A stretch of 64,000 bases of DNA, from assembly GCA_964579475.1 (NCBI GenBank), contig CAZOFP010000004.1:904-64903 (forward strand), given 5' to 3'. Shown here in pieces: positions 1 through 51,939 of this stretch. Under the pieces are notes generated by a model that made no database searches, had not been told where the DNA came from, and worked only from the letters and a program-made list of their open reading frames with translations. A program made the position numbers and the translations under genes. This DNA comes from an uncultured Candidatus Saccharibacteria bacterium. Its GTDB lineage: Bacteria; Patescibacteriota; Saccharimonadia; Saccharimonadales; CAYOYH01. Each line of letters opens with the position of its first letter. The stretch's first letter is position 1.

Positions 1-4
1 TATT

Positions 5-598
5 TTGACGTCTCCTAGGACTTTTAGTAATCGAAGCTACGTCTGGACTAACCCCAGAAGTGATGAAACTGCTAATATGACTAATCTTGTAAACCGTGAG
101 CTTTCGGAATATTCAGCGGAGTATCTAGCTAAAATTGGTCTGAACCAGGTAATACTGGTCGACGATATAAGAAATCGAGCTGGTCAACCTGTGTTGGGGT
201 TTTCTGACCCGCTGGCTGGTGAGATATATCTAAACACTGTAGCGCTTGAGGGCGAATACTCCCGAGCGACGGTTGCCGAACAGACTATTCACCACGAAGT
301 AGCTCATTTCTTGGCGTATACGGTCTATGGCTACTGGTTTGATCGCGACAGCGGTTGGAAAGACCTAGACAGTAATTATTCATATGGAGAAGATGTAGCA
401 GTAAGCAAAGAGTACTTCCCACGCGACGGTTTCGTCAGTCGCTACAGTATGAGCTCACCCGGCGAGGATTTTGCCGAAACTTATAGTCTGCTGTACACAG
501 AGTATTTCAATGATGCCCTGGCAGACGAAGCCAGCAGCAGTGAGCTACTCAGCAAAAAGCTGGAATTCGTTTACCAGACTATTTCTCAGGTGGAGTAG
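5..598 (+). CDS. Putative small zincin-type metallopeptidase; frame is open to the window edge, so possibly 5'-partial
   Basis: ORF track. HHEVAH (HExxH) motif followed by SPGEDFAETYS, an acidic EDFAE-type motif seen in small zinc-binding metallopeptidases. Its 3' end overlaps the convergent gene by 20 nt. Confidence 0.5.
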   Translation: MTSPRTFSNRSYVWTNPRSDETANMTNLVNRELSEYSAEYLAKIGLNQVILVDDIRNRAGQPVLGFSDPLAGEIYLNTVALEGEYSRATVAEQTIHHEVAHFLAYTVYGYWFDRDSGWKDLDSNYSYGEDVAVSKEYFPRDGFVSRYSMSSPGEDFAETYSLLYTEYFNDALADEASSSELLSKKLEFVYQTISQVE

Positions 599-2027
599 GC
601 TTGGTGTCGGGCGAGTTTCCAGATCGTCGGGATAACATGCGGCTGACCGTTTGAGACAGGGTTTCGTTTTCTTCCTTTTGGTCGCGGATATAGTAGGCGA
701 GCGCTGCAACTAGACTGATTAGTGTAGCGACGATGATGACTAGTAGCCAAGGAATGGTACGAAAATCTTTGGTGACCGAAACAGAGAAATAATAAACGTC
801 CTCGCAGCCTTGGGCGTCGGTGATTGCTAGGCTGCCGTTGTACTGACCGATGTCTTTGTACACGTGGTGATAGGAAGTGTTGTTGTCGCGGTAAAGGGTA
901 ATGTTCTCGATGGTGGCGTCGCCCCAATCTAGAAGTATTTGATACTCGGGGTTGCCAGATTTCAAAATCATTTCCAGGTTGACACCATCGTTACGCCTCA
1001 GCCCCCAGAAACGAACGTTCTCCAGCTCCAGCAGTGGTCGACAGGTCGTGATATCGCCACTGAAGAAGACGAGCACCGGTTCGGAAAACTCTGTACAGGT
1101 GCCGTCGACACAGGCACGAGCGGTTAAGGAATTCTGCGTGTTGGTCATGTTGAAAATAAAGTTCCAGTCGCCTAGCGGGTTAGAGAACGCCGAGCCAACA
1201 AGCTTGCCGTCGGCGAAGAGTTCTATTTGAGTATTCGCCGGCCCGATACCACTAACGGTGACTTCTTTGGAGCTGGTTAGACTGCGGTTTTTGGGACTGG
1301 TGATTTGAGGTGTGGTCAGCTCGCTAGGATAGAGATTGCCTTGGTCGCCGGGGAAGCGCCGGGCAGTCCTAAAAATATAGTCGTCGGATTCTTTGCTGAG
1401 TTGCCCGTTTACCTCCGAGACTACAGAGTAGGTATGAGTACCTAATGCATACAGCGAGGTGTCGGCAATCACCCACCAGTTACCCAGTTCGTTAGCTTTG
1501 GACACTAGGGTGAAATTGTTGTTGATGTTCAGATTAACATTGGCGTTGGGGCAGGTGAAGCCACGGAACGTCAGGTAGTCGCCGATGATGACCGGGTCTT
1601 TGTCGTGGTAAACGGTTGGTGGCAGAAATACATCGAGTGCGTTGTCTTCATGGGCGTTTAGCGAGGTGCTAAACTCGGCAGTTGAGGAGATATTTTGGAA
1701 TCTGTCTTCCTGAAAGATCTGAAGTTTTTGCAGGCCGTAGCTCTGCGAGCCAATAAATTTCGAGAAGTAGCCAAAATTGTTGGCTACTACCGTCCCGATA
1801 GGGGTGTTGTTTTCAAAAATGGTTACAAAAGCACTAGGTGAGGCGCAGCCGCTTACCGTCAGGGTACCTTCAGGAACAGAAAGTTGTACTGGTTCACCTG
1901 GGGCTTCTGTTGGCACACCACTAGGAACGGTGGTGGTGTCGCCGGTTGCAAATACTAAGCTACTGAATACACTCAGTGACATAAGTACACCGACGATTAG
2001 AGTTAGCCTAATAAACAGATTTTTCAA
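579..2027 (-). CDS. Exported surface protein: signal peptide, three Ig-like (Big-type) repeats, PKD-like domain, C-terminal TM anchor
   Basis: N-terminal hydrophobic signal (LIVGVLMSLSVFSSLVFA). Repeated pattern vTVSG...G.W. PKD-like segment LLDWGDAT...YHHVYKDIGQYNGSLAITDAQGC. C-terminal TM IPWLLVIIVATLISLVAALAYY. TTG start with GGTGG upstream. Confidence 0.6.
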   Translation of the reverse strand: MKNLFIRLTLIVGVLMSLSVFSSLVFATGDTTTVPSGVPTEAPGEPVQLSVPEGTLTVSGCASPSAFVTIFENNTPIGTVVANNFGYFSKFIGSQSYGLQKLQIFQEDRFQNISSTAEFSTSLNAHEDNALDVFLPPTVYHDKDPVIIGDYLTFRGFTCPNANVNLNINNNFTLVSKANELGNWWVIADTSLYALGTHTYSVVSEVNGQLSKESDDYIFRTARRFPGDQGNLYPSELTTPQITSPKNRSLTSSKEVTVSGIGPANTQIELFADGKLVGSAFSNPLGDWNFIFNMTNTQNSLTARACVDGTCTEFSEPVLVFFSGDITTCRPLLELENVRFWGLRRNDGVNLEMILKSGNPEYQILLDWGDATIENITLYRDNNTSYHHVYKDIGQYNGSLAITDAQGCEDVYYFSVSVTKDFRTIPWLLVIIVATLISLVAALAYYIRDQKEENETLSQTVSRMLSRRSGNSPDTKPTPPEK

Positions 2028-2074
2028 GTTACCACCACTACTTATTTTTGTTTACGTATCCGCGTCAGTATGGG

Positions 2075-3004
2075 CTATTTGCCAGAAAGGGCTTTACCAG
2101 CTTTAGACAAACGTCCTCGGTATCTAACAGCACCGTACGCTAGCAGTATTACACCCAAAGTCACTGGAATAATCACCTTATAAGGGAAAACCGTAAACGA
2201 AGTGCTGTCGGTCAGGATTGTGCCATCTGCACCGTAGACAAGTGTTAGGTCGGCGGTGTATTTGCCGACAGTGAAGCCACTAGGTGCCCAGTCGTTGACT
2301 AGTTTTCTGGTTGAGGTTGGTAGGACATTCTTTTCTTCTAGGTCGATAGTGGCGACAACGTTACCGAAGAAGTTTTTGATTTCAATAGTGCCGCTTGGTT
2401 TGAAGTGAACGTTACCAGTGTTCGTGACTCGTGTTTCAAACGTCACAGGACCCTTCTCCCAGAACGAATCGGTGGTGAAGCTAGCGATTTCGGCACCTTC
2501 TACTAGGTCGCCAGATACGCTGGTTAGAATCAATGGTCCAATTTCTTGGCTGACTGCTGCGCCAGATCCGTCGATGTCTATCGGATCAGTCTGGACGATG
2601 ATTGAGCCAAGGTGGCTGCCTGGTTCTGCACCAGCTGGGAGGTTTATTGAGAACTCGAAAACTTGTGAACCACGGGCTGGAACTGTGACCTTCGTTGGGC
2701 TGACAGTAATCCAACTAGCCAGCGAGAACGATGTGCTGTCTTCGGTTAAGTTTACGCCACCGTCTTCACCCGCTGGTGTAAAGTTCTTTGGTGTGGCGTT
2801 AAGAGTTAGGTCGATATCTGTGCCGTTAACTATCTTGAAACTCTCTGTGACGATGTCTCCTGGATCGGCGCTAATCTCAAAGACCTGTGGACTCACACTT
2901 AGAGCCACTGTACTTGTATCTTGCTGTGCCAGTGCTAGACCTGCAAAAATCGCCATAGTTGAGACTAGGGCGCCCACCGCCAAAAGATGTAACTTGTATT
3001 TCAT
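2075..3004 (-). CDS. Membrane-tethered protein with two beta-sandwich-like domains (CscA / DUF916-DUF3324-like architecture), copy 1
   Basis: Signal peptide (AIFAGLALAQQ), then two segments with the pattern PG...f.v.N.g, then a C-terminal TM (IIPVTLGVILLAYGAV) and basic tail. SD GGAGGAG precedes the ATG. Paralogous in layout to 5653..6765. Confidence 0.55.
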   Translation of the reverse strand: MKYKLHLLAVGALVSTMAIFAGLALAQQDTSTVALSVSPQVFEISADPGDIVTESFKIVNGTDIDLTLNATPKNFTPAGEDGGVNLTEDSTSFSLASWITVSPTKVTVPARGSQVFEFSINLPAGAEPGSHLGSIIVQTDPIDIDGSGAAVSQEIGPLILTSVSGDLVEGAEIASFTTDSFWEKGPVTFETRVTNTGNVHFKPSGTIEIKNFFGNVVATIDLEEKNVLPTSTRKLVNDWAPSGFTVGKYTADLTLVYGADGTILTDSTSFTVFPYKVIIPVTLGVILLAYGAVRYRGRLSKAGKALSGK

Positions 3005-3087
3005 CTACTCCTCCAAAATTGATGTTGTAATAAAGTTTAATCCTTTGACCTCTAGTTCTCAAGTCTTTTAGCTGTGGTTTTTGGGAA

Positions 3088-3122
3088 AACAAAAACCCGG
3101 CTCGACCAAGAACCGGGTTTTG
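3088..3122 (-). terminator. Rho-independent terminator after the 351-aa paralog 1 (hairpin usable on both strands)
   Basis: AACCCGG (12-nt loop) CCGGGTT stem flanked by A-run and T-run. It sits 18 nt downstream of the stop at 3140. Confidence 0.6.
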
Positions 3123-3139
3123 AACAAAGAGCTAACTGT

Positions 3140-4195
3140 TTAGTAGGTTGCTACTATGGTGTAGATCATCGTTGTGCTGTATGTACCAGCAGGGGTATCA
3201 CTCTGGATACCAACTTGTTGACCGACACGTACTGTTTCAGAACCAGCGGTAGCTGCGGCGTTAGTCATCACTAGGTCATTTGAAGTAGTGAAACCAGCCC
3301 AGGTGTTAGCTGTGAACTGAGTAAGATCAGCATCTTCCGTGGTGTAGCCCCAAGCTTCGGTGCCAGCTGCTGGGAAGGAAGTCGGTGCAGCGTTGGTACC
3401 AGTGTGGTTGGCGATTACATCACTAGATTCATTAGTTAACTGACCAGTGTGTCTAAGGTAGACGTTGTAGCCGCCTGAAGCATTGGTTGTTACTGCTAAG
3501 TCATGAGCTGCAATTCCGTTGGCAGAAGTCGTAACTGCCGTGCCGAAATCGATGCCAGTTGCAGTTGAGAGGATAGAAGTAGTAGCGCTGTTTACGAGTT
3601 GACCAGAAGCTACTGCGTTAACTACGAAAAGAAGGGTTGGCTCAAGAGTCAAAGAAACAAGCGTTCCATCTTTGTAGGCGAAAGCGATGGTCGTAGTATC
3701 GACTTCGTTACCGCCAGTACAACCAGCGTCAGTGTATGTGTTGATTAACGCATAGTAAGTTTGATCGGTATCGCCGTTGGTTACAGCTCCCCAAATTACA
3801 TTACCGTTGGCTGCAGGTGTTTCACCGGTTACATTAGTAATTCTGAGCGTGCCGTTGGAAGAGTTGTCTACACTCCAGCTACCAGCCGTTATAAGAGTAG
3901 ACGAAACGAGCGTCGAGCTTGTTGTAGTGATGGCATTTGGTATTGCTCCTGCGCCATCTGCTTGATCGTTTAGGGCAACTTCAATACAACCTATCGTAGT
4001 ACCGGTAGTAAAGCTAGAAGCTCCAACCGTGTATGTTGACGTTGTGGAGGTTCGTGAATCTCCGAGTTCGAGTGATGCTGAGGTTAAGCTAGCTGCTGAA
4101 ACTGATGCTAGATTACCCAGTACCATCATTAATGTGGCAGCTGCGACTACTACTTGCAGCACGCGCTTACCAAGGAACGTGGTGGACCTAATCAT
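3140..4195 (-). CDS. Secreted 351-aa surface/fibre subunit candidate, paralog 1 (variable N-terminal half plus shared C-terminal module ending TIVATY)
   Basis: Signal peptide ending SVSA. T/S/A/G/N-rich beta-type composition with only two Cys. AAGGAG SD. Has its own promoter-like site and terminator. The C-terminal 166 aa are homologous to the C-terminus of the 2102-aa protein. Confidence 0.6.
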   Translation of the reverse strand: MIRSTTFLGKRVLQVVVAAATLMMVLGNLASVSAASLTSASLELGDSRTSTTSTYTVGASSFTTGTTIGCIEVALNDQADGAGAIPNAITTTSSTLVSSTLITAGSWSVDNSSNGTLRITNVTGETPAANGNVIWGAVTNGDTDQTYYALINTYTDAGCTGGNEVDTTTIAFAYKDGTLVSLTLEPTLLFVVNAVASGQLVNSATTSILSTATGIDFGTAVTTSANGIAAHDLAVTTNASGGYNVYLRHTGQLTNESSDVIANHTGTNAAPTSFPAAGTEAWGYTTEDADLTQFTANTWAGFTTSNDLVMTNAAATAGSETVRVGQQVGIQSDTPAGTYSTTMIYTIVATY

Positions 4196-4267
4196 AGGTG
4201 TTCTCCTTAATTGTTTTGTTGTTATTTATTTTGCTGTCTGCTGTTTGCAGACTTAAAGCGTAACTAC

Positions 4268-4296
4268 TTTATATCACGGTTATTTGCACCGCTCAA
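4268..4296 (-). promoter_or_regulatory. Promoter-like site TTGAGC-17 nt-TATAAA for paralog 1
   Basis: Reverse complement of 4291-4296 is TTGAGC and of 4268-4273 is TATAAA, with a 17-nt spacer. The identical hexamers and spacing recur upstream of paralog 2. Confidence 0.5.
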
Positions 4297-4380
4297 CACC
4301 CCTGTGGCTAGTTTGTGGACAATTAACACTACGAGATAATAATTATTAAAATCTGTAGAACTCAATAAATATTGCTAAAT

Positions 4381-4412
4381 AAACCAAAACCCCGGCTCAA
4401 TTGAGCCGGGGT
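4381..4412 (-). terminator. Rho-independent terminator after paralog 2
   Basis: Perfect palindrome CCCCGGCTCAA|TTGAGCCGGGG followed on the minus strand by TTTTGGTTT. Confidence 0.7.
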
Positions 4413-4447
4413 CTGCATTTTAGATTCTAACTTCTAGTATCTATCGT

Positions 4448-5503
4448 CTAATAGGTAGCTACCAGAGTGTAAATCATCGTGGTGCTGTACGTACCAGCAG
4501 GGGTGTCAGTAGCGATACCGACTTGTTGTCCGACACGTACGGTATCGGTGCCAGCTGTGGCTGCTGCGTTGGTCATCACTAGGTCATTTGAAGTAGTGAA
4601 ACCAGCCCAGGTGTTAGCTGTGAACTGAGTAAGATCAGCATCTTCCGTGGTGTAGCCCCAAGCTTCGGTGCCAGCTGCTGGGAAGGAAGTCGGTGCAGCG
4701 TTGGTACCAGTGTGGTTGGCGATTACATCACTAGATTCATTAGTTAACTGACCAGTGTGTCTAAGGTAGACGTTGTAGCCGCCTGAAGCATTGGTTGTTA
4801 CTGCTAAGTCATGAGCTGCAATTCCGTTGGCAGAAGTCGTAACTGCCGTGCCGAAATCGATGCCAGTTGCAGTTGAGAGGATAGAAGTAGTAGCGCTGTT
4901 TACGAGTTGACCAGAAGCTACTGCGTTAACTACGAAAGTTAGAGTAGGTTCGATTGTCAGAGAGACGAGGGTTCCGTCCTTGTAGGCAAAAGCCATAGTT
5001 ACGGTGTCGACTTCATTGCCGCCAGTACAAGATGCATCTGTGTAGGTAGTGAGTAGGGCGTAATATGTTTGGTCGGTGTTGCCGTTGGTTACTGCTCCCC
5101 AAACTACATTGCCGTTTGCTGCCGGTGTTTCACCGGTTGCGTTGGTAATACTAAGGGTTCCGTTCGTGCCGTTGGCTACAGTCCAGCTGCCGGTGGTGAT
5201 AAGCGTTGATGAATCTAGCGTTGAGCTAGTAGTAGTGATACCAGCTGGAATAGCTCCTGCGCCATCTGCTTGATCGTTAAGGGCGACTTCAATACAGCCT
5301 ATTGAAGTTCCGGTGGTGAAGCCGGAAGCTGTAGTCGTATAAGTTGATGTTGTGGAAGTACGTGAATCGCCAAGCTCTACAGATGCTGAGGTAAGTGTTG
5401 CTGCCGAAACAGATGCCACATTACCAAAAATCATCATTGCCGTAGCCACTAAAGCTACTGCTTGAATTACGCGTTTTCTTACCAACGCTAAAGACCTATT
5501 CAT
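4448..5503 (-). CDS. Secreted 351-aa surface/fibre subunit candidate, paralog 2
   Basis: Same length and layout as 3140..4195. Signal peptide ends SVSA. A central 122 aa are identical to paralog 1. C-terminus is TLVATY. AAGGAG SD. Confidence 0.6.
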   Translation of the reverse strand: MNRSLALVRKRVIQAVALVATAMMIFGNVASVSAATLTSASVELGDSRTSTTSTYTTTASGFTTGTSIGCIEVALNDQADGAGAIPAGITTTSSTLDSSTLITTGSWTVANGTNGTLSITNATGETPAANGNVVWGAVTNGNTDQTYYALLTTYTDASCTGGNEVDTVTMAFAYKDGTLVSLTIEPTLTFVVNAVASGQLVNSATTSILSTATGIDFGTAVTTSANGIAAHDLAVTTNASGGYNVYLRHTGQLTNESSDVIANHTGTNAAPTSFPAAGTEAWGYTTEDADLTQFTANTWAGFTTSNDLVMTNAAATAGTDTVRVGQQVGIATDTPAGTYSTTMIYTLVATY

Positions 5504-5587
5504 AGGCGTTCTCCTTTTTGTTTTTGTTTTGTTGTTTTTATTTTGCGGTGCCCACTGCTAGTCGAGAGAGGGCTAAAGCATAAGTAA

Positions 5588-5616
5588 TTTATACCATGTC
5601 GCAACTAACTGCTCAA
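5588..5616 (-). promoter_or_regulatory. Promoter-like site TTGAGC-17 nt-TATAAA for paralog 2
   Basis: Reverse complement of 5611-5616 is TTGAGC and of 5588-5593 is TATAAA, with a 17-nt spacer. Same geometry as 4268-4296. Confidence 0.5.
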
Positions 5617-5652
5617 TACCTCTGTGAGTTAGCTGTGGATAACTGGCTTGGT

Positions 5653-6765
5653 TTATCTTATGATAATTTTCCTTTTTCTTTGTCTTTGGGCGTGGTGTGG
5701 ACTTGGCGCGTGGTCAGGCTTTCTACTAGATGTGCCGCTAAGCAAATCGTCGATTTTACTTGAGTCCATGGAAAGTCGAGCCATGTCTTGAGGTCTGTTC
5801 TCGGATTCGTTGTGCTTTCTTTTGAGGATACGAGGGCCGATACGAATACCCTTGAAGCGCCAAAGTAAACGTCTGATGGGTTTTTTGAGTATGAAGGCGG
5901 CAACAAGCACCGATACAGCCATTAGACTTAGGAAAAATATCAGACTTACGAAGTTTGGTAAAAACACAATCGTTCCAGTGTCTAGAGAAGCGAACTGGGT
6001 TGGCGAACCATAGGACAGGTCAATCTCGACTCGATGTAGGCCAACTCGGCCACCAGTTGACCATCTGACATCGTAGCTTTTTGTAGTGTTTGGCAATATA
6101 AGTTGTGGTGGCACAGAAATACTGTCAACTAATCGATCGCTTCGGTCGTAAAGCTTGACTGTTGCAGTCGGCAGAATATGAGTGTTCCCGGTGTTGGCGA
6201 TATTAAAAGATAAGGTTTGATCTTCGCCAAAGACAAAGAAAGGAGTGTCTAGCTGCTCGATAGTAGCTTCCTCTTGAGCATCGCCAGCGACGTTAATAAA
6301 TGCTAGCGAAGTAAGTGTCGGTGTGACTATTGAACCAGAAGCTGACTGTTGTTGAGTTGAAGTAGTTGTGAAGGTGACCATAGCATAGTGTCCGCCAGGC
6401 CCAGCATTTTCCGGTACTAGAAACTGAACGTCAACTGACCGTTGCTCCCCAACGTCTAGCAAGAATTTTCTACCTTTGTCTATGAGCCAGGTTGATGCAT
6501 CAATGTCTTTACGCTTTTGTTGGTTAATGTCGGGGTCGTTTGGTATCAGAGACTGTGCACCGACTTCCACGCCGACGGGGGTTCCAGAGATGTTTTGAAT
6601 AAATATTGTCGCTGAGACTGTCGTGCCGGGTTCTGTGGCGAGCTCAACAATTGCTGGTCTAAGGGCGAGGCCGATTTCTTGTTCGGCTTCAGCCGCAAAA
6701 ACGAGCCGAGGGACACCAATGAATGTCAGTATTGCTAGTCCCACCAGTAAAGTTATTTTACGCAT
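5653..6765 (-). CDS. Membrane-tethered protein with two beta-sandwich-like domains (CscA / DUF916-like architecture), copy 2, with long basic cytoplasmic tail
   Basis: Signal peptide (LVFAAEA). Two PG...v.N.sG-type segments. TM FVSLIFFLSLMAVSVLVAAFIL. K/R-rich tail. The ATG at 6765-6763 overlaps the TGA of the upstream giant gene (TGATG), implying translational coupling. Confidence 0.55.
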   Translation of the reverse strand: MRKITLLVGLAILTFIGVPRLVFAAEAEQEIGLALRPAIVELATEPGTTVSATIFIQNISGTPVGVEVGAQSLIPNDPDINQQKRKDIDASTWLIDKGRKFLLDVGEQRSVDVQFLVPENAGPGGHYAMVTFTTTSTQQQSASGSIVTPTLTSLAFINVAGDAQEEATIEQLDTPFFVFGEDQTLSFNIANTGNTHILPTATVKLYDRSDRLVDSISVPPQLILPNTTKSYDVRWSTGGRVGLHRVEIDLSYGSPTQFASLDTGTIVFLPNFVSLIFFLSLMAVSVLVAAFILKKPIRRLLWRFKGIRIGPRILKRKHNESENRPQDMARLSMDSSKIDDLLSGTSSRKPDHAPSPHHAQRQRKRKIIIR

Positions 6766-15497: not shown

Positions 15498-15546
15498 AAA
15501 AAACCTTAGTCAAGTAAACAAAAGTTTGTTGCCTGAGGTTTTTTTT
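15498..15546. terminator. Bidirectional rho-independent terminator shared by the orphan plus-strand unit and yajQ
   Basis: AAAAAACCT...CAA..AAAC aaaa GTTT.TTG...AGGTTTTTTTT: an interrupted hairpin flanked by an A-run and a T-run. It overlaps the yajQ stop codon. Confidence 0.7.
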
Positions 15547-16045
15547 ATTTAAAATTTGTAAACTCAACAGGGAAGTCGAACTTGGCTTCTTTGATAGCGG
15601 TCATGGCGTCTTGTAATTGATCTTTTTTAGGGCTGGAAACTCGGATTTCCTCACCCTGAATTTGGGTTTTCACTTTTGGTAGTTTGTCACGAAGTAGTTT
15701 GGTAATTTTCTTGGCTCGTTCTTTGTCTAGGCCTTTTTTGAATGTAACTATCCAGGTCATCTTTAGATTGGAGGTTTCTGGTTCGGCCGAGGTGTCGAAA
15801 ACCTTCTGGCTGACGCTGCGTTGGGCGGCCTTTTTACGGAGCATGTCCATAATTGCGTCTAAGTGGTACTGAGTGTCGCCGGTTATCTTCAAAGAGTCCT
15901 TTTCACCAGAGGCGAAATCTACTCCAGCGCTCGTGCCTTTAAAATCATAACGAGTGAGTATTTCGCGGCGTGCTTGATCGACGACGTTGTTCATCTCAGC
16001 TACGTCGTAGTCGCTGACTGCGTCAAATGAATAACTCTTTGCCAT
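15545..16045 (-). CDS. yajQ: YajQ-family nucleotide-binding protein (UPF0234)
   Basis: 166 aa. N-terminus SFDAVSDYDVAEMNNVVDQARREILTRYDFKG and overall layout are typical of YajQ. TGgTAAAAT extended -10 lies 6 nt upstream of the ATG. Confidence 0.85.
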   Translation of the reverse strand: MAKSYSFDAVSDYDVAEMNNVVDQARREILTRYDFKGTSAGVDFASGEKDSLKITGDTQYHLDAIMDMLRKKAAQRSVSQKVFDTSAEPETSNLKMTWIVTFKKGLDKERAKKITKLLRDKLPKVKTQIQGEEIRVSSPKKDQLQDAMTAIKEAKFDFPVEFTNFK

Positions 16046-16146
16046 TTAGGTATTTTACCAGAAATTTGGTGGTGGCGCTGTTTTGCCAGCGCACCGCATC
16101 GTTCTTTTTGGCAGCAAAAAGAACATAAAGACTGCCTCCACGGACG

Positions 16147-16263
16147 AAAACACTATGAACCCAGTCCTCTCATTGAACGGAGCCTGCGACAGCTCGTCGT
16201 TAATCACTCCTCAGACACTCCTCGGCTCTGGCCGTTCACTTCTCGATGGTCTTCATCGGTTTT
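16147..16263. ncRNA. Candidate structured RNA region (strand unresolved, family unknown)
   Basis: Three nested helices: AAAAC/GTTTT plus ATGAA/TTCAT (16147-16159 with 16252-16263), GAACGG-AGCC with GGCT-(CTGG)-CCGTTC (16175-16184 with 16224-16237), and CGAC agctc GTCG (16187-16199). Also a direct repeat CACTCCTC x2. No convincing ORF. Confidence 0.2.
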
Positions 16264-16334
16264 CTTTAGTGTCGGAAATAACTCCAGGAAAAAACAGATA
16301 GAATTATCAAGTTATTCGATCAAGATACAGAGCA

Positions 16335-16366
16335 GTATAGTTATATAATTAATTATATAACTATAC
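16335..16366. repeat. Perfect 32-bp AT-rich palindrome GTATAGTTATATAATT|AATTATATAACTATAC (copy 1 of core TTATATAATTAATTATATAA)
   Basis: Read directly. Core at 16341-16360. Contains TATAAT on both strands. Confidence 0.9.
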
Positions 16367-16409
16367 GGTGTGACCACTGTTACGTGGATAGATGTATTAG
16401 GTAGTAAGG

Positions 16410-16429
16410 TTATATAATTAATCATATAA
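16410..16429. repeat. Copy 2 of the palindromic core, with one mismatch (TTATATAATTAATCATATAA)
   Basis: Read directly. Its centre lies exactly 69 bp from the centre of copy 1. Confidence 0.85.
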
Positions 16430-16514
16430 CTAAGAACAAAGATGCATTTATGCATAGCTGACTGCGGACGGTTTGTAGCTGAGAGAGGGCGCTTGAGGTA
16501 TAATTTCGTCAAGT

Positions 16515-17531
16515 ATGAGTAAAGACAGCAACGATATTGATATTGTCCGCAAGGAACTGACTAAAAGAGTAAAAGAGACCGACGAGCCTCGGTCGGTTCT
16601 GCGTGCGCCTGAGCTCCGAGATCTTTTCAAGAAGCTTGCTAGCCTACCGACTAGCGACCGCGCGAAATTTGGTCAGGAAATTAATTCACTAAAGAACGAG
16701 CTTTTAGCGCTGGTGCAGAGCAAAGAAGACGAAGCGCACAGCCAAGACGTTTCACCGATAGATTTGACTGCTCCTTTTGATGTCAACGTACCAGACGATA
16801 TGAAGCCCAGACTGTTGCCAACAGAGCTTGGCTCACAGCACCCAGTAGTTACAGAACTTGGGATAATCAAAGACATATTCCTGAGAATGGGCTTTAACGT
16901 CGAAGAAAGCCGCCAAATAGACGACGATTATCATATGTTTACCTCGCTGAATTTTCCCAAAGACCACCCCGCGAGGGACGATTACGACACATTCATGACC
17001 GAAGAGGGGCTGATACTGCCAGCCCACACCTCAACCATGCAAAACAGGGTGCTAAAACAATACGATGTACCAGTACGAGTAGTCATACCGGGCAGGGTTT
17101 TTCGTAACGAAGACCTCGATGCCACACATGAGCATACCTTCCACCAAGTCGAGGGAGTTTACGTCGATGAAGGCATAACCTTGGGCGATATGATTGGTAC
17201 AATTGTGGCGTTTTTTGAGGAGTATTTTGGACAAAGTGTAGAGTACAAAACACAACCATTCTTCTTCCCGTTTGTCGAACCTGGGTTGGAATTTCTAATC
17301 AAAAAGCCCGAAGCGCTAAAAAAACCAGGCGAGGGTGAAAGCTGGATGGAAATAATGGGCTGCGGCATGATTCACCCCAACGTTCTTAAAGAGGCTGGCG
17401 TCGATGCGCAGAAATACTCTGGATTTGCCTTTGGCATGGGCGTCGAGCGCATGGTGATGCTCAAATACGGTATTGAAGATATTCGGCATTTCATGAGTGG
17501 TAACTTAGAGTTTTTGAGGCAGTTTAAATGA
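16515..17531 (+). CDS. pheS: Phenylalanine--tRNA ligase alpha subunit
   Basis: 338 aa. Class II aaRS motifs (HPARDDYDTF, FRNEDLDATHEHTFHQVEG, GFAFGMGVERM). ATGA overlap with pheT. Confidence 0.95.
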   Translation: MSKDSNDIDIVRKELTKRVKETDEPRSVLRAPELRDLFKKLASLPTSDRAKFGQEINSLKNELLALVQSKEDEAHSQDVSPIDLTAPFDVNVPDDMKPRLLPTELGSQHPVVTELGIIKDIFLRMGFNVEESRQIDDDYHMFTSLNFPKDHPARDDYDTFMTEEGLILPAHTSTMQNRVLKQYDVPVRVVIPGRVFRNEDLDATHEHTFHQVEGVYVDEGITLGDMIGTIVAFFEEYFGQSVEYKTQPFFFPFVEPGLEFLIKKPEALKKPGEGESWMEIMGCGMIHPNVLKEAGVDAQKYSGFAFGMGVERMVMLKYGIEDIRHFMSGNLEFLRQFK

Positions 17532-40315: not shown

Positions 40316-40317
40316 TT

Positions 40318-40352
40318 TAGACGACAGACGACAGAAGCTAGATGGTAGAATA
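40318..40352 (+). repeat. Five tandem heptads YAGANNN (TAGACGA CAGACGA CAGAAGC TAGATGG TAGAATA), starting 3 nt after the gap stop codon
   Basis: Read directly. A near-identical tract is at 51905-51939. Confidence 0.8.
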
Positions 40353-40889: not shown

Positions 40890-40970
40890 GCACCAGCGGT
40901 GCAGTAGTAAGTAGCTAGTAGAAAGCATCAAGTATGAGAAGGAACAAGCGAACAATACCGGAAAGGAATA

Positions 40971-40994
40971 AGTTATATAATTAATTATATAACT
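40971..40994. repeat. Copy 3 of the AT palindrome: perfect 24-bp AGTTATATAATT|AATTATATAACT
   Basis: Read directly. Core at 40973-40992. Confidence 0.9.
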
Positions 40995-41041
40995 AAGTTT
41001 GGTAGCATGCTTAAACAAATAACAGAGGGAAGAATCATCAA

Positions 41042-41061
41042 TTATATAATTAATTATATAA
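41042..41061. repeat. Copy 4 of the AT palindrome core, TTATATAATTAATTATATAA (perfect)
   Basis: Read directly. Its centre lies exactly 69 bp from the centre of copy 3. Confidence 0.9.
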
Positions 41062-41101
41062 CTATGTTACCTCGTACTTACTACTGCTCGCGAGGTATCT
41101 C

Positions 41102-41734
41102 GTGAGTGTGATTTGTCCAACGATACTGGCAGATAATGCGCATACATATCGTACACAGCTCGAACGTATCGAAGAATTTGCCAAGAGAATTCAAATTGAT
41201 CTTACTGATGGTGAATTTGCCCCAACTAATACCATAAATCCCGTACAAGCCTACTGGCCTGCTGGTATGGATGTGGATATCCACCTGATGTATAAAACCC
41301 CGTCCCAGCAACTGGAGCAGTTGATTCATATGGGACCAAACATGATAATTCTGCATGCTGAAGCGGAAGGTGAGCTACTGGAGATGTTTAACGATATTGG
41401 TGCAGCCGGTATTGAGACTGGCGTGGCTCTGCTCAAAGAGACACGGGTTGAAGATGCCAAACAGCTTATCGAAGCAGTTGATCATGTGCTTATTTTCAGC
41501 GGGGATTTGGGCAAGTTTGGCGGCAAAGTCGATGAATCTTTGTTTACCAAGATTAGAGATGTAAAAGAAATTAACCCTAGCGTTGAGATTGGCTGGGATG
41601 GCGGAGTGAATGCCGACAATGCCGAAATGTTAATGCGAGCTGGCGTGGATGTGCTTAACGTCGGTGGCTTTATCCAAAAGTCAGACAATCCACAAGCTGC
41701 TTATGCTATACTGGAGCGTAAGATACATCAGTAA
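41102..41734 (+). CDS. rpe: Ribulose-phosphate 3-epimerase family protein
   Basis: ICPTILA...IQIDLTDGEFAP...DIHLM...GWDGGVN: a TIM-barrel Rpe-like pattern. GTG start. Confidence 0.7.
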   Translation: MSVICPTILADNAHTYRTQLERIEEFAKRIQIDLTDGEFAPTNTINPVQAYWPAGMDVDIHLMYKTPSQQLEQLIHMGPNMIILHAEAEGELLEMFNDIGAAGIETGVALLKETRVEDAKQLIEAVDHVLIFSGDLGKFGGKVDESLFTKIRDVKEINPSVEIGWDGGVNADNAEMLMRAGVDVLNVGGFIQKSDNPQAAYAILERKIHQ

Positions 41735-51901: not shown

Positions 51902-51904
51902 GTT

Positions 51905-51939
51905 TAGACTACAGACGACAGACGATAGATACTAGAATT
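51905..51939 (+). repeat. Second copy of the five-heptad YAGANNN tract (TAGACTA CAGACGA CAGACGA TAGATAC TAGAATT)
   Basis: Read directly. It starts 4 nt after the upstream stop and ends 11 nt before the gatB ATG. Confidence 0.8.

Follow-up and report, generated by a model that had tools for sequence, protein, structure and literature searches.

Paired AT-only palindromes form a previously undescribed ~115-bp intergenic repeat in a subclade of Saccharimonadales

What kind of element places two copies of one palindrome at a fixed distance beside unrelated genes? The question is raised by a 64,000-nucleotide stretch of DNA from an uncultured Candidatus Saccharibacteria bacterium (contig CAZOFP010000004.1 of assembly GCA_964579475.1; this whole stretch is called the window here). 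A 20-bp palindrome made only of A and T, TTATATAATTAATTATATAA (PAL below), occurs there twice upstream of pheS and twice upstream of rpe, and the two copies start 69 bp apart in both pairs. A previous reading of the letters alone (the sequence-only reading) took the pairs for operators of a dimeric protein rather than for a mobile element. The pairs belong to a ~115-bp intergenic repeat that is specific to a subclade of Saccharimonadales and previously undescribed. Our preferred explanation, in which our confidence is evenly divided, is a dispersed doublet repeat resembling repetitive extragenic palindromic (REP) sequences, bacterial interspersed mosaic elements (BIMEs) and Correia elements, with selected palindromes recognized by a putative protein.

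Almost nothing is known about the cis-acting DNA signals of Saccharibacteria and other candidate-phyla bacteria. The element would offer a handle for finding a putative DNA-binding protein or mobilizing enzyme, and could help to define promoters in cultivable TM7 strains.

Structure and copies of the doublet

The four PAL copies of the window lie at 16341-60 (perfect), 16410-29 (one mismatch, T14C), 40973-92 and 41042-61 (both perfect), and no further match with up to three mismatches was found in its 64 kb. The sequence-only reading was right about the two pairs, their common 69-bp spacing, the perfect 32-bp palindrome at copy 1 (16335-16366), the CTA directly 3' of all four copies and the neighboring genes. 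It had put 42–46 bp between partners, and the gap is 49 bp. The 20-mer consists of two palindromic octamers 12 bp apart and is a direct and an inverted repeat at once; the octamer TTATATAA is confined to these four sites within the window, whose G+C content is 46%. TATAAT had been claimed for both strands of every core. This holds for the perfect copies, and copy 2 has it on the plus strand only, its other half being TATGAT.

Locus 1 comprises DUF520/yajQ (15545-16045, minus strand), a 469-bp spacer, pheS (16515-17531) and pheT. Homologues of PheS put the organism in Saccharimonadales. Locus 2 comprises gap, rpiB, a 212-bp spacer and then, from 41102, rpe, a split tkt, fba and pfkB. The two elements are inverted relative to each other, as seen from ACAGAGG at 41022-28 (plus) and ACAGTGG at 16380-74 (minus). 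Their features are as follows.

16322 to 16434, minus strand: doublet element 1, whole unit (nhmmer with a 13-copy profile, 16434..16322, E 2.9e-21); its polarity, read from heptamer and flanks, is toward yajQ/DUF520 and away from pheS
16335 to 16366, no strand: "near" palindrome of element 1, perfect over 32 bp (arms 100% complementary), core 16341-16360; predicted single-stranded DNA (ssDNA) hairpin of -8.4 kcal/mol, z -5.4
16374 to 16380, minus strand: oriented heptamer ACAGTGG (plus strand CCACTGT), 13 nt from the near palindrome
At 16380, minus strand: hexamer ACAGTG of element 1, 17 nt upstream of the minus-strand TATAAT
16410 to 16429, no strand: "far" palindrome of element 1, one mismatch (TTATATAATTAATCATATAA), a variant recurring elsewhere as A7G
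16499 to 16504, plus strand: -10 TATAAT of pheS itself, 10 nt before its ATG, outside the element
40970 to 41077, plus strand: doublet element 2, whole unit (nhmmer E 1.7e-22), polarity toward rpe
40973 to 40992, no strand: far palindrome of element 2, perfect 20-mer within a 24-bp palindrome (40971-40994)
41016 to 41028, plus strand: conserved internal motif (C)AAATAACAGAGG of element 2
41022 to 41027, plus strand: hexamer ACAGAG of element 2, 17 nt upstream of TATAAT at 41045-50
41042 to 41061, no strand: near palindrome of element 2, a perfect 20-mer that precedes the rpe GTG (41102) by 40 nt
41062 to 41068, plus strand: conserved right flank CTATGTT of element 2 (family consensus CTATGTTG-N6-ATGTT)

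Is the pattern an accident? No PAL match arose in 100 dinucleotide shuffles of the window. The pairs are not an assembly artefact, because two other assemblies carry them (one NCBI contig, 99.8% identical, and one Logan contig, 100% identical). A fixed period with mostly different spacers might also recall a minimal CRISPR-like array (25-bp repeat, 44-bp spacer, period 69). However, there are never more than two repeats, the spacer carries an oriented motif, the doublets are conserved at orthologous positions, and no cas genes were found among the window open reading frames (ORFs) scanned. That chance, artefact or such a mini-array explains the pairs is barely credible.

Further copies were sought in several ways (L-numbers label the contigs or loci compared). 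A metagenome scan for two octamer pairs 34–64 nt apart gave 57 loci, most of which are AT-rich 12-bp tandem arrays or other, unrelated arrays; the (TTATATAATTAA)n tandem arrays and other TTATATAA-N4-TTATATAA arrays, lying on AT-rich or unrelated contigs, were rejected as family members. Seven contigs (41–45% G+C) have exactly two 20-mer copies spaced 68–69 bp, and contigs encoding relatives of PheS and Rpe yielded additional copies. With L121 and L168 counted once as the same DNA, and with window element 1/L157/L166 and window element 2/L170 as orthologous sets, the total is 13 distinct doublets at 10 independent loci (window, L115, L121/L168 with three copies, L126, L145, L146, L157, L158, L166 and L170). 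All 13 are spaced 68 or 69 bp and all 13 are intergenic, which bears out the proposal that paired geometry is conserved. On these contigs the 20-mer is found in doublets only, except for one extra single copy in L170; the relatives L171 and L173 have single sites only.

When all copies were oriented by their flanks and aligned, the element read, in order, (t)AG, PAL, CTATGTTG-N6-ATGTTT, N3, the heptamer GAAATAACAGAKG, N12–13, PAL and CTATGTTG-N6-ATGTT. This layout corresponds to a 69-bp unit, itself based on an AT-only palindrome, present ~1.6 times. The consensus CTATGTTG-N6-ATGTT after both PALs and the oriented heptamer 12–13 nt from one of them give the element a polarity. The heptamer is inverted in one of the 13 copies, and the L158 copy has both halves (ACAGATGtCATCTGT). 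The difference between 68- and 69-bp spacing always lies inside the N12–13 segment. No conserved sequence was found beyond positions -3 and +20 of the PALs, nor any duplicated flank. The spacers had been called unrelated, yet both window spacers carry ACAG(A/T)GG 13 nt from one palindrome, and spacer identity between copies (26–35 of 49) is slightly above the shuffled control (23.4 ± 2.7). The PAL variant A7G is found in four copies, always on the same side, and PAL variants are never compensated on the other arm. A micro-ORF after the far PAL (M-L-x-x-M-F-x-E-I-T-D) was dismissed; the 68 versus 69 spacing breaks its frame and its stop positions differ.

Over the 10 independent copies, ~121 bits are conserved, whereas ~16 bits would be enough to specify two sites per 64 kb. 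A composite of this size that keeps one rigid motif order at 10 or more unrelated loci must be the product of copying, and the statement that the pairs are not a mobile element is not supported. The family would thus have spread in a copy-and-paste manner, like REP or REP doublets (REPINs), BIMEs or Correia elements, rather than as operators that evolved in place.

Single PALs have a wider distribution. An exact scan for the 20-mer, with one genome per GTDB species, returned at least 106 loci. Among the matches listed, 22 loci are from eight Saccharibacteria metagenome-assembled genomes (MAGs), several in each, and other Patescibacteria are also recurrent; chance could account for the matches in very AT-rich genomes. 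The PAL is single, not paired, in the Saccharibacteria MAGs listed, often with genome-specific palindromic extensions such as GAC...GTC or TTAA...TTAA. All 22 single sites are intergenic by heuristic ORF calls (13 tandem, four convergent, two divergent, three unclassified), and they face nusA, rplJ, pyk, a Mur ligase gene and a DnaJ-domain protein gene, among others. A partial module, ATGTTG..GAAAATAACAGATG-N13-PAL, lies beside single PALs in distant Saccharibacteria MAGs as a profile match. ACAGAK stands at the same offset from PAL in 4 of the 22 Saccharibacteria single sites versus 0 of 84 loci from other phyla (matches listed; P = 7e-9).

Several other palindrome arrangements came up in these scans. 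In the Saccharibacteria MAG CAZXYN01, GAC-PAL-GTC is paired at 36–38 bp with a different AT palindrome, TTTATATAAAcATTTATATAAA, at all three loci seen (L034 532/568, L055 1847/1883, L070 7802/7840), which is a different, genome-specific doublet architecture. In Christensenellaceae and related MAGs (L003, L022, L030, L051, L064, L074, L085), a conserved locus has the identical 20-mer within a canonical TTGACA-17-TATAAT promoter, where it forms the -10 and what follows downstream, ~20 nt before an ORF beginning MRSN.VAVLDIRS; this may be an operator that overlaps a promoter in an unrelated phylum. Freshwater contigs (L123, L130, L134, L136, L152, L162; 43–55% G+C) hold 11–25 copies of TTATATAAC within 2 kb, often as TTATATAAcatgTTATATAAc; these clusters look like iteron arrays and have no relation to the Saccharibacteria element. 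In MAG S139_126 and Falkowbacteria bin.303, several contigs (L010, L037, L044, L056, L075, L102 and others) end ~30–160 bp from TTATATAATTAA arrays of two to three octamers, and AT-only palindromes may break assemblies. One array, in L105, ends 4 nt before an ATG, like a leaderless-type promoter.

Selection and inheritance

Comparison of orthologous loci separates what is kept from what drifts. The PALs are identical at 38–39 of 40 positions (95–97.5%) and the spacers at 19–27 of 48–49 (39–56%). Four-fold degenerate sites of adjacent genes are 54–69% identical between the window and L170, and 39–46% between the window and L166. Because spacer identity is close to that of four-fold sites and PAL identity is far higher (P = 1.6e-6 to 7e-13), the PALs are strongly constrained and the spacers about neutral. 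These sequence comparisons show purifying selection on the PALs, the heptamer and the 68–69-bp spacing, and neutral drift at the remaining spacer positions. After insertion, the copies are inherited vertically.

This constraint together with vertical inheritance points to recognition by a sequence-specific protein or complex, and the contrast of PAL with spacer identity favors the sequence-only reading on that point. A putative protein, or a complex touching both PALs and the heptamer, would read the element. The candidate reader may serve the host, in DNA architecture or in regulation, or it may be an enzyme that mobilized the family in the past.

The same constraint can be explained without mobility. 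A dimeric protein, acting as a global regulator at sites that belong to the host, would occupy both PALs and repress or activate an ACAGAK-17-TATAAT promoter, with the palindromes centered at about -74.5 and -5.5 of it. Purifying selection on the PALs and on a spacing that varies by only 1 bp, with neutral spacers and a third motif at a fixed position, agrees with such a cassette, as does the 20-mer overlapping the -10 of the conserved Christensenellaceae promoter. We consider this explanation possible but doubtful, and its difficulties begin with the fate of the doublets in close relatives, where the element is missing from the same spacers.

At yajQ-pheS, L166 (PheS identity 89%) and L157 (apparently an 87% relative) have the doublet, with its polarity unchanged. 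The doublet is absent from L167 (84%), L169 (82%) and L168/L121 (81%), where the spacer measures 59–139 bp. In every genome compared, pheS retains rGGTATAAT 10–12 nt before its ATG, with or without the doublet, so the doublet is not the pheS core promoter. A regulator shared by pheST and the rpe operon, as once proposed, does not fit the absence of the doublet before pheS in three of six genomes, the TATAAT that pheS keeps for itself or a polarity of element 1 that points away from pheS. At rpiB-rpe, the doublet is retained in L170 (Rpe 93%). A single site stands 45 nt before the ATG in L171 (82%), as a 3-octamer array, and in L173 (71%), as one PAL; L172 (84%) has none. Thus a PAL-type site lies upstream of rpe in four of five genomes with Rpe 71–100% identical, which speaks for the two-operator cassette. 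No PAL is present in 33 kb of one relative (L167 and L172) or in 21 kb of another (L169).

The two spacers hold other features. At locus 1, the 300–400 bp between yajQ and the doublet are non-homologous among the window, L166 and L157 by blastn and tblastx. The window has 290 unannotated bp there (16046-16334), and L166 and L157 carry different DNA of similar length. This segment contains a terminator-like hairpin with a T-run (16243-16268, plus) and a 10-bp hairpin (16101-16124). A small ORF or homologous RNA was considered for it and rejected; the 72-aa ORF (16083-16301) has no Pfam match and the region no homology. Rfam models at gathering thresholds found nothing in the whole window (only noise, E > 1, at 15950-16560), and no tRNAs were found in it. 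A block GTTTGTAGC(C)TRAGAGAGG (16471-16489), situated between doublet and pheS -10, is present in the three doublet genomes and missing from the doublet-free relatives; GTTTGTAGCC also occurs beside the L115 doublet.

At locus 2, a perfect 13-nt inverted repeat (GCAGTAGTAAGTA / TACTTACTACTGC; 40901-40913 and 41075-41087, 161 nt apart) brackets the doublet. AGTA-rich repeats and their TACT complements also flank the center of the rpiB-rpe spacer in L170 and in the PAL-free L172, and from these sequences the bracketing repeats look like a separate, conserved long hairpin of this spacer. For rpe, the Shine-Dalgarno sequence GAGG and the start codon GTG are both sequestered in a 10-pair hairpin (41085-41108, TGCTCGCGAGGTATCTCGTGAGTG). 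A 13-codon ORF running from just after the near PAL ends in GTGA and overlaps the rpe start.

Gene context, promoter content and mobility

If the element served transcription of its neighbors, its placement should follow them. Doublets fill the spacer between convergent 3' ends at three loci (L145, Obg and the prephenate dehydratase PheA; L146, PepN and YraN; L158, a hydrolase and an unknown gene). At L145 and L158 the element takes up the entire ~110–115-bp spacer. Other doublets lie between tandem genes (rpiB/rpe, DUF192/unknown and the L168 island) or divergent genes (yajQ/pheS and MFS/Mur ligase). The genes on either side share no function. Polarity and gene direction are uncorrelated, with about equal numbers of copies pointing toward 3' ends and toward gene starts in our tally. 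Its presence in all intergenic types, a polarity blind to genes and a patchy distribution in relatives agree with the REP/REPIN, BIME and Correia class.

For the two-operator cassette, these observations are costly. A promoter would serve no purpose at three of the 10 independent loci, which separate convergent 3' ends; polarity is unrelated to gene direction, the would-be target genes are functionally incoherent, and the conserved information is ~7 times what a binding site needs. The suggested link between translation and carbon genes is not supported; other copies sit beside unrelated genes and convergent 3' ends. A spacing of 69 bp (~6.6 helical turns) would be out of phase for a simple loop, which also disfavors looping by a tetramer as the sequence-only reading had envisaged. 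Among the 39 window ORFs scanned, none was found to encode a transcription factor. On the other side, the distance from a PAL to the gene start it faces is often 40–52 nt (40 at window element 2, 50 at L115, 52 at L126, 47 at L168, 45 at both L171 and L173), which speaks for the cassette.

The element also has promoter-like content. The distance from ACAGAK to the TATAAT downstream of it (PAL positions 4–9) is exactly 17 nt, and ACAGAK stands where TTGACA does in the Christensenellaceae promoters holding the same 20-mer. The looser pattern ACAG-N2-16/18-TAnAAT precedes the window genes yajQ, rpiB and gatB as well, with five intergenic occurrences versus two in ~6 times more coding DNA. At locus 2 the near PAL contains the only -10-like hexamer within 120 nt before rpe, and on sequence grounds it probably supplies the rpe-operon promoter. 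The promoter-like geometry fits rpe by position (40 nt before the start), not pheS or the convergent loci; the earlier suggestion of promoter cassettes is accordingly plausible at rpe and does not hold as a pheS promoter.

Could the doublets be plain promoters, with PAL as a bidirectional pair of -10 boxes, ACAGAK as a -35 type of this lineage, two strong promoters in tandem and no dedicated regulator? The TATAAT on both strands of perfect copies, the ACAGAK geometry and the intergenic bias just described suit this explanation, as do the 3-octamer arrays of other Patescibacteria that lie just after terminators and 4–20 nt before start codons. However, a -10 box needs 6 bp, not a perfect palindrome of 20–34 bp kept at 95–97.5%. 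The second PAL at 69 bp and the conserved CTATGTTG-N6-ATGTT would be left unexplained, and several copies would fire antisense into convergent genes. With a standard sigma-70 scan, locus 1 gave no promoter and locus 2 only one weak minus-strand match, and other window promoters, such as that of gap, use TTGnnn-type -35 boxes. We regard plain promoters as unlikely. With ACAGAK and TATAAT so arranged, the element may be viewed as a portable cassette of promoter type, and its indifference to gene orientation argues that this content is a side effect, not the purpose it serves.

Two observations concern transcription in the lineage more generally. Hexamers of the -10 type stand close to starts at pheS (TATAAT 10–12 nt before the ATG in all relatives), yajQ (TAAAAT, 6 nt) and gatB (TAGAAT, 12 nt), and this sequence pattern suggests that leaderless or near-leaderless mRNAs are common. 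In addition, a ~36-bp cassette, TTTAGAC.ACAGACGACAGA.G.TAGAT..TAGAAT, is found upstream of rpiB (40316-40351) and gatB (51903-51938); ending in a -10-like TAGAAT, it looks like a second shared promoter-type motif.

A function at the RNA level also has to be considered. The two PALs are predicted to pair with each other rather than to fold separately, forming a 22–26-bp A-T/A-U stem from which the 49-nt spacer stays unpaired (RNA -27 to -31 kcal/mol, z -4.7 to -7.1, either strand). The PAL duplex, or two hairpins, could be an RNase III site, a 3'-end stabilizer or a bidirectional terminator, and at L145 and L158 the element leaves no room for another terminator. Such roles are known for REP and Correia elements (PMC2649163). 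In contrast, the palindromes lack a following U-tract and were not called by the terminator scan, canonical GC-rich terminators are used elsewhere in the genome, and PAL variants are uncompensated. A hairpin needs neither a conserved loop length nor an oriented heptamer, and the element also lies in divergent spacers. We consider a purely RNA-level element very unlikely. Within a dispersed repeat, paired PALs in read-through RNA or ssDNA could still act as a processing or stabilizing hairpin.

The preferred explanation, a dispersed doublet repeat, has its own difficulties, and the following weigh against it. No target-site duplications and no clean filled-versus-empty site were found; presence and absence are seen at the yajQ-pheS and rpiB-rpe spacers, where the surrounding DNA is not alignable and gives no exact boundary. 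Both units are in direct orientation, with CTATGTT after each, unlike inverted REPINs or miniature transposable elements with inverted repeats (MITEs). In 274 kb of clade DNA, the profile matched only intact doublets or single PALs and no decayed copies, and vertical conservation of this kind fits a purely host-functional binding site equally well, which favors the two-operator cassette. The density, ~2 doublets per 64 kb, looks like a low copy number, and the same 20-mer core spans the whole phylum, whereas REP sequences are usually species-specific. Two candidate mobilizers also failed. One is the HNH gene flanked by doublets in L168, which is a McrA-like type IV restriction gene with two homologous loci free of PAL. 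The other is a link to REP-associated tyrosine transposases (RAYTs); Y1_Tnp genes occur at two PAL-bearing loci from other genomes (L045 and L072) but adjoin different palindromes there. A phage origin was rejected, as neither the doublet nor a 24-mer had a match in 2.9 million viral contigs.

The two rejected mobilizers lie in regions with features of their own. L168 positions 1-6000 (L121 8900-13638 reversed) form an accessory island with three doublets within 5 kb, one on each side of the McrA-like McrB_N-HNH gene, followed by GIY-YIG, RNase H-domain and further genes; the island is not present at that position in the window. For annotation, the element marks variable spots with non-homologous DNA and defense genes. 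The Y1_Tnp (IS200/RAYT-like) genes (L072 159-761, minus; L045 1887-2642, minus) lie next to GC-containing palindromes (L045 2724-2790), and L072 has a doublet TGGCCTATAC...GTATAGGCCA at 776-798 and 854-876, spaced 78 bp. By their sequences, these are candidates for genuine REPIN-RAYT pairs in Patescibacteria-type genomes.

One further idea joins several of these threads. The doublet could be a vertically inherited "punctuation" module of Saccharibacteria and related candidate-phyla bacteria, in which a putative conserved DNA-binding protein reads a 34-bp AT palindrome and a non-canonical ACAGAK-17-TATAAT promoter lies between the sites. We hold this idea speculatively and with low confidence. 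If it were true, then the module would be a portable, protein-gated promoter or insulator, and the first cis-regulatory code described for this phylum, most of which is uncultured.

Comparison with known systems

Our literature search, over 8 million papers, found no relevant description of the sequence, of Saccharibacteria promoters or of Patescibacteria LexA motifs. Set against a sigma-70 promoter (-35 and -10 hexamers 16–18 bp apart), the element has a perfect TATAAT with ACAGAK, which is not TTGACA-like, 17 nt upstream, and the standard scan gave no match on the strand concerned. Some known systems differ from the element at once. A CRISPR array needs three or more repeats with unrelated spacers, whereas there are always exactly two repeats in the doublet. 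MITEs differ in that the element has no terminal inverted repeats, target-site duplication or full-length similarity.

Operator pairs such as LacI O1/O3, GalR OE/OI and tandem NrdR boxes hold defined positions at one promoter and serve coherent regulons. The doublets resemble them in three ways: the palindromes are identical and a constant distance apart, a promoter-like module overlaps them or lies in between, and selection acts at orthologous loci. They differ in lying between convergent genes, in either orientation and beside unrelated neighbors, and in their excess of conserved sequence. In BIME-1/RIP elements of E. coli, two REPs flank a conserved linker with a site for integration host factor (IHF), whose consensus is WATCAANNNNTTR. 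The likeness here includes two palindromic units at a fixed distance, a conserved linker motif and placement in extragenic regions of any type, and by analogy the linker motif could bind a second protein. However, by eye the linker motif GAAATAACAGAKG does not match the IHF consensus, and the units are not of the Y or Z REP types.

Correia elements (CREE/NEMIS) of Neisseria (PMC2649163) resemble the element in being ~100–150 bp long and intergenic, with conserved ends and core. They can create promoters at their ends, the ends pair in RNA as an RNase III substrate, and they alter the expression of adjacent genes. They differ in that their ends are inverted repeats with a TA target duplication, neither of which is seen in the element, and in showing no sequence similarity to it and a different host phylum.

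In REPINs, which are extragenic doublets, the ends are conserved and the spacer less so, and the two units start 71 bp apart in the GI type (PMC3116915). The doublets (68–69 bp) share with them extragenic palindromic pairs at a fixed distance, ends that are far better conserved than the spacer and predicted to pair in ssDNA or RNA, random intergenic placement and long vertical persistence. The units here are perfect AT-only self-palindromes, and the extended units are direct, not inverted. The spacer stays unpaired and carries an oriented conserved motif, whereas REPINs fold with the spacer included. The copy number looks like tens per genome, not hundreds, and the 20-mer core is phylum-wide rather than species-specific. 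No RAYT was linked to the element; in the window or the clade loci searched, a scope narrower than whole genomes, neither E. coli RayT nor a Saccharibacteria Y1_Tnp protein gave a tblastn match. If the element is simply REP-like, then this class extends to the streamlined, ~1-Mb genomes of epibionts.

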